Origin: a virus
Lineage: Duplodnaviria; Heunggongvirae; Uroviricota; Caudoviricetes
IMG/VR virus record: IMGVR_UViG_2698536372_000004
Length of the DNA stretch: 17,131 bases
Reading direction: 5' to 3' (one strand)
Shown here: positions 12,538 to 13,755 of the stretch, in pieces
How the letters are laid out: each line of letters opens with the position of its first letter
How positions within the stretch are numbered: the first letter of the stretch is position 1
Made by a program: the position numbers and the translations under genes
The notes under the pieces: model-generated
Database searches by the model: none
Told to the model about the DNA's origin: nothing
What the model saw: only the letters and a program-made list of their open reading frames with translations

Positions 12538-13755
12538 ATGCCAACTGAATATGCTCGCGACAACCTTGGTCGCTATCAGACCGATGGATTAAGTGCAAAA
12601 GACTTTAACAAGGTCTTCGATCTTATCCGTAAACAGCAGCGTCAGAATCGGCGAAACGCGCGGCGTACACTCACCCCAAGGATTATGGGGATGCGTAACC
12701 GCGAACTTGAGGCATTCCTCAGCCTTGGGAAAAAGAAAGATGGCACCTACTTTACGCCCGAAGATATACGCAGTTTCAACACCTCAAGGCAGGCTCATAA
12801 AACCAAATTCAAGAGCACGGTACCCGGCATTACCTATGCTCAGCTGGTGGCGCAGTCCACCAGCATTGATATAAAACGCGCTAACAACAAAGTTTCTGAT
12901 GGCACAGGGATCAAAGCCGCGACATTCCTCGGGCTAAAACACAACCTTGCATTGATATCTGTTAATGCCTCGGATGAGTCGGTCCACCAGCATCACCGTG
13001 TCAGAATTCGATTTGAGGAATGGGATAAAGCCGTTGAGGAAATTGCTGAAGACGGTGCGAAAAAAGCCCGAATCGCTGCCGATCTCTGCAAGGGCCGGGT
13101 ATCTTTCGACTGTGATTGTGGACGCCATCAATACTGGTATCGTTATATGGCCACGGCTGGTAACTATGCTGTCGCGCCGCCAAAAGAGTATGCATTCCCC
13201 AAAATCCGCAACCCTGATCTGACTGGTGTGGCTTGCAAACATGTTTTGCACGCTATGACACGTTTTCAGTCTCCCACATGGCACAAGGCCATCATTATTG
13301 CCCTGGAAAAAGCAGCTGAACAGGTAGCCTTCGGCGATGACAAGCGGAAGACAACAACCTATTTCAAAGGCGAACTGGCTAAATCGCTCGCGCGCAACCG
13401 GACAACAACGACGGATCAGGCTAAAGCTGCGCGTGAGTATGAGCTGTATCTGAAATCTCAGGATGCATTAGGCAAAAAACTACGCGCAAAAGATAGCGCC
13501 ACGGACAACGTTCGCCGGTTGTTAAAAAAAGCTCGCACCACGGCAAACAGGAAGAATGCCGAACTAAAAGCATCGCGGGTGAGGGAAGCCCAGGCTCGCG
13601 CTGAAGCCGACGCTCTCAAAAAAGCCCTGCAAACGCAGGCGAACAACCTCATAAAGTTTTTCATGAGTCAGGGAATGGACAAGGCCGCTGCCACCGCGCA
13701 GGCGCGAAGCATTCTTGAGACACAAATTAACGAAGCCCGTAAACGGAAAGGATAA
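12538..13755 (+). CDS. SWIM-like zinc-finger protein with basic coiled-coil C-terminus
   Basis: RVSFDCDCGRHQY...(about 40 aa)...GVACKHVLHAM resembles CxCxnCxH (SWIM) with an unusually long spacer. The C-terminal ~110 aa are K/R/A/Q-rich and helical. RBS AAGGGA. Confidence 0.45.
   Translation: MPTEYARDNLGRYQTDGLSAKDFNKVFDLIRKQQRQNRRNARRTLTPRIMGMRNRELEAFLSLGKKKDGTYFTPEDIRSFNTSRQAHKTKFKSTVPGITYAQLVAQSTSIDIKRANNKVSDGTGIKAATFLGLKHNLALISVNASDESVHQHHRVRIRFEEWDKAVEEIAEDGAKKARIAADLCKGRVSFDCDCGRHQYWYRYMATAGNYAVAPPKEYAFPKIRNPDLTGVACKHVLHAMTRFQSPTWHKAIIIALEKAAEQVAFGDDKRKTTTYFKGELAKSLARNRTTTTDQAKAAREYELYLKSQDALGKKLRAKDSATDNVRRLLKKARTTANRKNAELKASRVREAQARAEADALKKALQTQANNLIKFFMSQGMDKAAATAQARSILETQINEARKRKG

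Follow-up and report, generated by a model that had tools for sequence, protein, structure and literature searches.

What does the product of phage P1 gene 25 do? P1 is the standard transducing phage of Escherichia coli, and P1-like phage-plasmids spread resistance genes; after the cryo-EM work of 2025-2026, the other five products of the late operon 26-25-7-24-6-5 have been placed in the virion, and gp25 is the one without a place. The question is raised here by a stretch of tailed-phage DNA of 17,131 nucleotides, which we call the window (IMG/VR record IMGVR_UViG_2698536372_000004; Caudoviricetes), in which one reading frame encodes a protein that combines a CxC...CxH motif with a long basic tail.

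The open reading frame list and its translation show that positions 12538-13755 of the plus strand are a real gene, encoding 405 amino acids and ending in a stop codon. Its ATG, preceded by AAGGGA, lies 10 nt past the stop codon of gene 26. The initial annotation had left this gene unrecognised; sequence and PHROG matches identify it as classical P1 gene 25, whose product, gp25, is an essential late morphogenetic protein. The DNA is 99.3% identical to P1 NC_005856 76851-78068, annotated as gene 25 'tail stability', and 99.2-99.5% identical to P1 and to close relatives that include RCS47, JL22, P7 and SJ46, while the protein shares 99.8-100% of its amino acids with P1 gp25. PHROG 1722 matches over residues 1-405 (E = 1.6e-227). 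It and PHROG 4315 ('tail protein') are the only family models for gp25; searches of Pfam and NCBIfam with native gp25 sequences matched no family model. Scans of IMG/VR returned near-identical relatives only. P1-type records cover only 58% of the left arm of the window (positions 1-6300). Some parts of this arm match P7, or lambdoid phages of the Stx-converting kind, in ea/Ea22-like genes and hypothetical ones. The accessory region of this P1-like phage-plasmid therefore differs from that of reference P1.

Gene 25 ends 3 nt before the ATG of gene 7, within an operon that has the order 26-25-7-24-6-5 and the following landmarks in the window:

about 12062-12078: C1 operator O26, transferred from the P1 annotation (L001 12525-12541)
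12103..12121, plus strand: late promoter LP26, transferred from the P1 annotation (P1 feature L001 12566-12584)
12151..12528, plus strand: gene 26, baseplate 'plug', related to T4 gp53 (PHROG 1269 and P1 annotation; baseplate model in PMC12810830)
13759..14487, plus strand: gene 7, neck stopper, net charge -33 (P1 annotation; stopper hexamer in PMC12810830)
16946..16967, no strand assigned: bidirectional terminator-like hairpin after gene 5, seen in the sequence

The window is 98% identical to P1 across the LP26/O26 region, and by transfer of the P1 annotation LP26 would drive the whole operon, the probable end of which is the hairpin.

Published work on the P1 virion leaves gp25 apart from its neighbors. 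In the whole-virion cryo-EM analysis of 2026, gp7 is the neck stopper, gp24 the tail terminator and gp26 the baseplate plug, and gp25 is absent from the proteins modelled (PMC12810830); nor was gp25 placed in a 2025 preprint on the tail and baseplate (bioRxiv 10.1101/2025.07.21.665459). LC-MS/MS of virions detected gp25 by only two peptides (8.4% coverage), which is the cut-off level, and four of the nine proteins found at that level are plainly non-structural (TciA, Cre, Dmt and Ant1) (PMC9024508). Genetically, genes 25 and 7 bear the same 'tail stability' label in the P1 annotation, shared in part with gene 24. Because gene 25 is defined by amber mutants, it is counted as essential; a CRISPRi screen scored it non-essential, but the authors of that screen take genes 25 and 26 to be known essentials and consider the roadblocks there ineffective (PMC10695390).

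Two further P1 proteins deserve mention in this context. The gene pmgR (L001 8619-8837; about 8156-8374 in the window, minus strand) encodes a second small basic protein, PmgR, of 72 aa and pI 10.1. PmgR is essential, its deletion leaves heads and tails unjoined, and it was undetected in virions (PMC9024508); like gp25, it is not among the proteins listed as modelled in the whole-virion study (PMC12810830). The other is the tape measure Sit, of 1140 residues, encoded outside the window (P1 sit, NC_005856 40988-44410). For lambda and T4, the tape-measure ratio is about 1.5-1.7 A per residue. The P1 tail has 52 tube rings plus initiator rings (PMC12810830), and if about 40 A per ring is assumed, Sit comes to ~1.9 A per residue, a high ratio that raises the question of whether there is another contributor to length determination.

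The protein itself can be divided as follows, by AlphaFold2 prediction, charge and alignment:

12538..12897, plus strand: N-terminal basic, mostly helical region, residues 1-120, net charge +14 (AlphaFold2, charge)
12898..13323, plus strand: globular core, residues 121-262, with three beta strands, two helices, the SWIM-like finger and the next helix
13111..13119, plus strand: first putative ligand pair, C192-D-C194, at the end of strand 187-192 (translation; invariant in 70 diverse sequences)
13120..13233, plus strand: insert of 38 residues that separates the two pairs, with helix RHQYWYRY, rich in aromatic and basic residues, and loop E..FPKIRNP.L.G
13234..13242, plus strand: second putative ligand pair, C233-K-H235, at the N-terminus of helix 234-242 (translation, alignment, AlphaFold2)
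13417..13668, plus strand: long charged helix, residues 294-377, net charge +12, with weak heptads, variable in length and sequence across the family (AlphaFold2)
13669..13752, plus strand: C-terminal two-helix module, residues 378-405 (alignment of C-termini)

A SWIM-like motif with a spacer of about 40 residues had been proposed from the sequence, and the peptides quoted for it are indeed present, as C192-D-C194, 38 residues and C233-K-H235; three of the four cysteines of gp25 belong to it. Conservation sets this motif apart. A search of 1.84 billion cluster representatives gave 409 clusters at E up to 0.001, and CxC-x36-41-CxH occurs without exception in the 246 homologues retrieved that are 300 aa or longer. 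All four ligands are invariant in an alignment of 34 sequences that extends down to 40% identity. When 70 sequences are aligned, down to 21% identity, only ten residues remain invariant (G97, C192, C194, E217, P221, N225, G230, C233, K234 and H235), and the four ligands are among them. As judged from these alignments, the CxC...CxH motif is far beyond chance. The insert is the best conserved stretch of the whole protein: its length stays between 36 and 41 residues in 246 of 246 members, it is modelled at pLDDT 94-98, and R196, R202, Y203, A205, G208 and K222 within it are at least 90% conserved in the alignment of 70. Because the invariant E217, P221, N225 and G230 also lie inside the spacer, it is no loose linker.

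AlphaFold2 models full-length gp25 at a pLDDT of 82, and residues 1-292, with a deeper alignment, at a pLDDT of 93.6 and a pTM of 0.91. N-terminal helices, in a region that holds a conserved GI..QL...S...D..RAN stretch (G97, D111 and L45 are conserved), are followed by strands 128-134, 137-143 and 152-159, two helices, and strand 187-192 leading to CDC. After CDC come helix 195-207, a long ordered loop, and helix 234-242, which starts with CKH. The model has a beta-strand knuckle carrying CxC and a helix that opens with CxH, and this combination of strand-end knuckle and first helix turn is, in the predicted fold, the arrangement of a SWIM-type finger. From the topology and a match to human ZSWIM8 we infer that the ligands cluster in space; C192, C194, C233 and H235 together most likely hold one structural Zn2+.

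The curated sequence test for SWIM nevertheless misses gp25, and it does so because of the insert. The Pfam SWIM family (PF04434) does not match native P1 gp25 at E up to 10, nor does it match any of 34 native homologues or a 113-aa core fragment; its gathering score is 19.6 bits, and native sequences fall short of it. When the middle of the spacer was cut out in silico, 46 of 57 diverse members matched SWIM (E up to 1; best E = 3.3e-6), which is by far the commonest Pfam family for such constructs; that of P1 gp25 scored 15.4-15.8 bits, below the 19.6-bit cut-off. On these sequence comparisons we describe the core of gp25 as a split SWIM-type finger, presumably SWIM-like in working and probably SWIM-derived. 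Other searches added no relative. Searching PDB sequences with gp25, a 70-sequence profile or an insert-excised mini-profile gave nothing meaningful, Foldseek found no match below E = 0.9 in the PDB, and Pfam revealed no fused domains in the long homologues. A 2022 HHpred analysis of P1 proteins gave nothing above 50% for gp25 (PMC9024508), and the recent P1 structure literature (PMC12810830, PMC9024508 and bioRxiv 10.1101/2025.07.21.665459) mentions neither zinc nor SWIM. Gene 25 is classical. What appears new is that the invariant core of its product, in a large phage family for which Pfam and NCBIfam have no model, can be recognised as a split finger of the SWIM type. It would extend the SWIM finger to a split form overlooked by current profile models, represented by ~400 clusters at 50% identity from prophages and phage-plasmids of Enterobacterales, Vibrio, Acinetobacter, Burkholderiales and Desulfobacterota.

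The second striking property of gp25 is its charge. Its pI is 10.1, and its net charge of +35 is the highest among 53 P1 proteins checked; the next is Hdf, at +21, which contacts DNA in the capsid in the 2026 cryo-EM work (PMC12810830). Among 238 full-length homologues, pI ranges from 9.3 to 11.1 and the median net charge is +34, split over the N- and C-terminal parts. The basic character of the protein is thus stronger than first reported, and family-wide. Gp25 and gp7 (net charge -33, pI 4.09), encoded by coupled genes, sit near the opposite extremes of charge among the 53 proteins. Homologues of gp7 are always acidic (-10 to -40), and across 42 loci the net charges of gp25 and gp7 homologues showed no co-variation (r = -0.16, p = 0.32).

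A K/R/A/Q-rich tail of about 110 aa had been noticed, and a tail of that kind is there: 112 residues (294-405; nt 13417-13752), modelled by AlphaFold2 as one 84-residue helix and then a shorter one. Its description as a coiled coil needs refinement. There is weak heptad periodicity, since a/d positions are 46% hydrophobic against 21% overall, a difference equalled by 0.7% of shuffles; but Pfam coiled-coil matches for gp25 homologues are only weak, and some homologues have Lys/Pro/Thr-rich low complexity instead of a helix, as in P0160 and P0232, where Lys/Pro-rich tracts take the place of the long helix. Comparison of the homologues indicates that what they retain in this segment is a basic tether, and not any particular coiled coil. 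Beyond it, the two-helix module of ~30 residues at the C-terminus recurs family-wide, as at the C-termini of P0154, P0170, P0190 and P0232, and is duplicated in some members; Pfam gave scattered sub-threshold helix-turn-helix-like matches to this mini-domain, with no consistent family.

Gene order in relatives was surveyed at 70 loci from one-genome-per-species collections, from many bacterial orders, with Enterobacterales, Vibrio, Shewanella, Acinetobacter, Paraburkholderia, Nitrosomonas, Halomonas and Desulfobacterota among them. The reading frame immediately upstream of the gp25 homologue is gene 26-like in 50 of the 70; directly downstream there is a gene 7-like frame in 38 and an unlabelled one of 150-300 aa in 15 more. 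The median gaps are 2 nt between 26 and 25 and -1 nt between 25 and 7. The usual order in relatives is mat-26-25-7-24-6-5. In relatives from Acinetobacter, Xanthomonas and Nitrosomonas, 26-25-X has terminase, pro or fibre genes on one side and the gene for the major capsid protein on the other, and no likeness to gp7 is detectable in the downstream gene of distant relatives. The unit moves as a block, and its surroundings define no single sub-assembly. Genes for baseplate, neck and hub are intermingled in this order, so that neighbouring genes are a poor guide to contact between their products.

The same survey places a homologue of mat ('maturation control') directly upstream of gene 26 in most relatives, whereas in P1 itself ~75 kb separate the two. 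The ABMM1-like phages of Acinetobacter have a Mat-like frame of ~185 aa directly before that of the 663-aa large terminase, which is where a small terminase subunit is typically encoded. A scaffolding function for gp25 was also considered, prompted by the location of gene 25 between terminase/portal-side and capsid genes in Acinetobacter and Xanthomonas phages. It was set aside because the upstream 512-aa gene is a tail-collar fibre, because module order varies, and because the P1 capsid protein sheds an N-terminal segment of 124 residues that is probably the scaffold (PMC12810830, PMC9024508).

The explanation that we consider best, at a probability of roughly 45%, is that gp25 is an essential P1 morphogenetic protein whose SWIM-type zinc core docks on a neck or tail intermediate, and that the mature virion does not contain it as an ordered part in fixed stoichiometry. 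We favor this role because gene 25 and gene 7, which encodes the stopper, carry the same phenotype label and are coupled in the operon, because gp7 is among the most acidic P1 proteins checked (-33 vs +35 for gp25), and because gp25 appears not to be an ordered virion component. The conserved aromatic/basic helix-loop insert of 36-41 residues, displayed on the zinc scaffold, would form the binding surface. A candidate partner would be the very acidic gp7, produced from the translationally coupled downstream gene; adjacency, the shared phenotype label and opposite charge hint weakly at this pairing. The basic regions, in turn, may bind the DNA end or acidic channel surfaces. The SWIM-type site offers the first concrete handles on gp25, namely four putative ligand residues, a predicted metal and a conserved aromatic/basic insert, and there are two obvious candidates for the partner, acidic gp7 and DNA.

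Gp25 might instead be a low-copy virion protein bound to the packaged DNA, probably to the end of it, inside the capsid or the channel of the neck or tail; as the initial annotation proposed, it would then leave with the DNA at infection. Such a position would suit its extreme and conserved positive charge and the histone-H1-like Lys/Pro tails of some homologues, and the other very basic virion protein, Hdf, does contact capsid DNA. The proteomic data can be read both ways: two peptides from CsCl-purified virions equal the count for the six-copy stopper gp7, and structural gp5, gp26, UpfC and PmgA yielded none, but the four non-structural proteins among the nine at that level include the DNA-acting Cre and Dmt, so that a sticky basic protein could co-purify (PMC9024508). 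The same is true of the maps. Neither cryo-EM study assigned density to gp25, but symmetrised maps would not show a protein of the lumen that is disordered or asymmetric, and Sit is likewise unresolved (PMC12810830). A capsid-internal protein, moreover, would not obviously yield a tail-class phenotype. We regard this reading as unlikely on balance, though only slightly less likely than the docking role, and as the more interesting of the two. A tail-side function, in which gp25 would be a tail-completion or tail-lumen factor acting with the tape measure Sit and the terminator gp24 to lock the sheath in its extended state, seems to us distinctly improbable. The 'tail stability' label is partly common to gene 24, genes 6 and 5 of the operon encode hub and spike, an acidic tube lumen would be a fitting place for an elongated basic helix, and Sit is unresolved in the maps (PMC12810830). 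Against these points, PmgB has already been proposed as the tape-measure chaperone (PMC9024508), and in distant relatives gene 25 adjoins head genes (pro and the major capsid protein), not tail genes.

The idea that gp25 is not morphogenetic at all, and is a transcriptional regulator or nucleoid-associated protein, is the least probable. SWIM fingers do occur in FAR1-type transcription factors and MULE transposases, and in most relatives gene 25 comes two genes after mat, the 'maturation control' gene. A regulator had been among the initial proposals, but it fits poorly with a gene of a late operon whose amber mutants form a specific tail/neck class: gene 25 is expressed from a late promoter within a structural operon, its mutant class is tail-specific and not pleiotropic, and Pfam detected no helix-turn-helix or other sequence-specific DNA-binding domain. 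The one annotation that points toward regulation comes from Xanthomonas phage Rb1, whose homologue (PQ569993.1; L083 7809-8888) was deposited, and described in a 2026 paper, as 'transcriptional regulator MvaT'. This protein carries the CxC...CxH core and has no Pfam match at E up to 10. Neither the Rb1 protein nor the P1 protein matches any Pfam family at that threshold, MvaT/H-NS-like nucleoid proteins included, and the MvaT annotation of the homologue looks unsupported. The mentions of 'SWIM' in the 2026 Xanthomonas phage paper concern swimming motility.

How, then, does gp25 compare with systems already known? The window protein is the same protein as P1 gp25 (PHROG 1722, PHROG 4315), and no difference between them was found. 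With T4 gp25, the baseplate wedge protein and sheath initiator, it shares only the number; the P1 orthologue of T4 gp25 is PmgA, not P1 gp25 (PMC9024508; bioRxiv 10.1101/2025.07.21.665459). As an analogy for the kind of role open to a very basic, neck-class and poorly visible protein, we would point to T4 gp2 and Mu gpN; the analogy concerns a putative role only, as no similarity of sequence or fold came to light. T4 gp2 protects DNA ends and is required for heads and tails to join, and Mu gpN is a tail-associated protein that circularises injected DNA; both are low-copy virion proteins that are linked genetically to the neck or tail and bind phage DNA ends. By this analogy gp25 could ride the end of the packaged DNA, be ejected with it and protect or hold the ends in the recipient, as a zinc-finger analogue of T4 gp2 or Mu gpN. 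This specific proposal is a long shot, which we rate below even the tail-side function and above the regulatory one. Abortively transduced DNA is reportedly kept circular and stable, and gp25 of this kind, if real, could be what keeps it so.

The closest comparison is with the SWIM fingers (PF04434) themselves, which are exemplified by human ZSWIM8 (PDB 9rwz chain M), MEKK1, Shu2/SWS1, FAR1, MuDR transposases and the bacterial SWIM domains associated with SNF2 ATPases. Gp25 has in common with them the CxC...CxH ligand pattern with its typical CKH, a CxC that follows a beta strand, a CxH that starts a helix, and a small beta sheet before the finger. It differs in its spacer, which has 36-41 residues in the gp25 family and is shorter in classical SWIM fingers, where it is said to be roughly 6-25 residues. 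Unlike in SWIM proteins, the spacer is itself the most conserved part of gp25, the setting is a phage morphogenesis operon, and the finger is flanked by basic N- and C-terminal regions foreign to known SWIM architectures.
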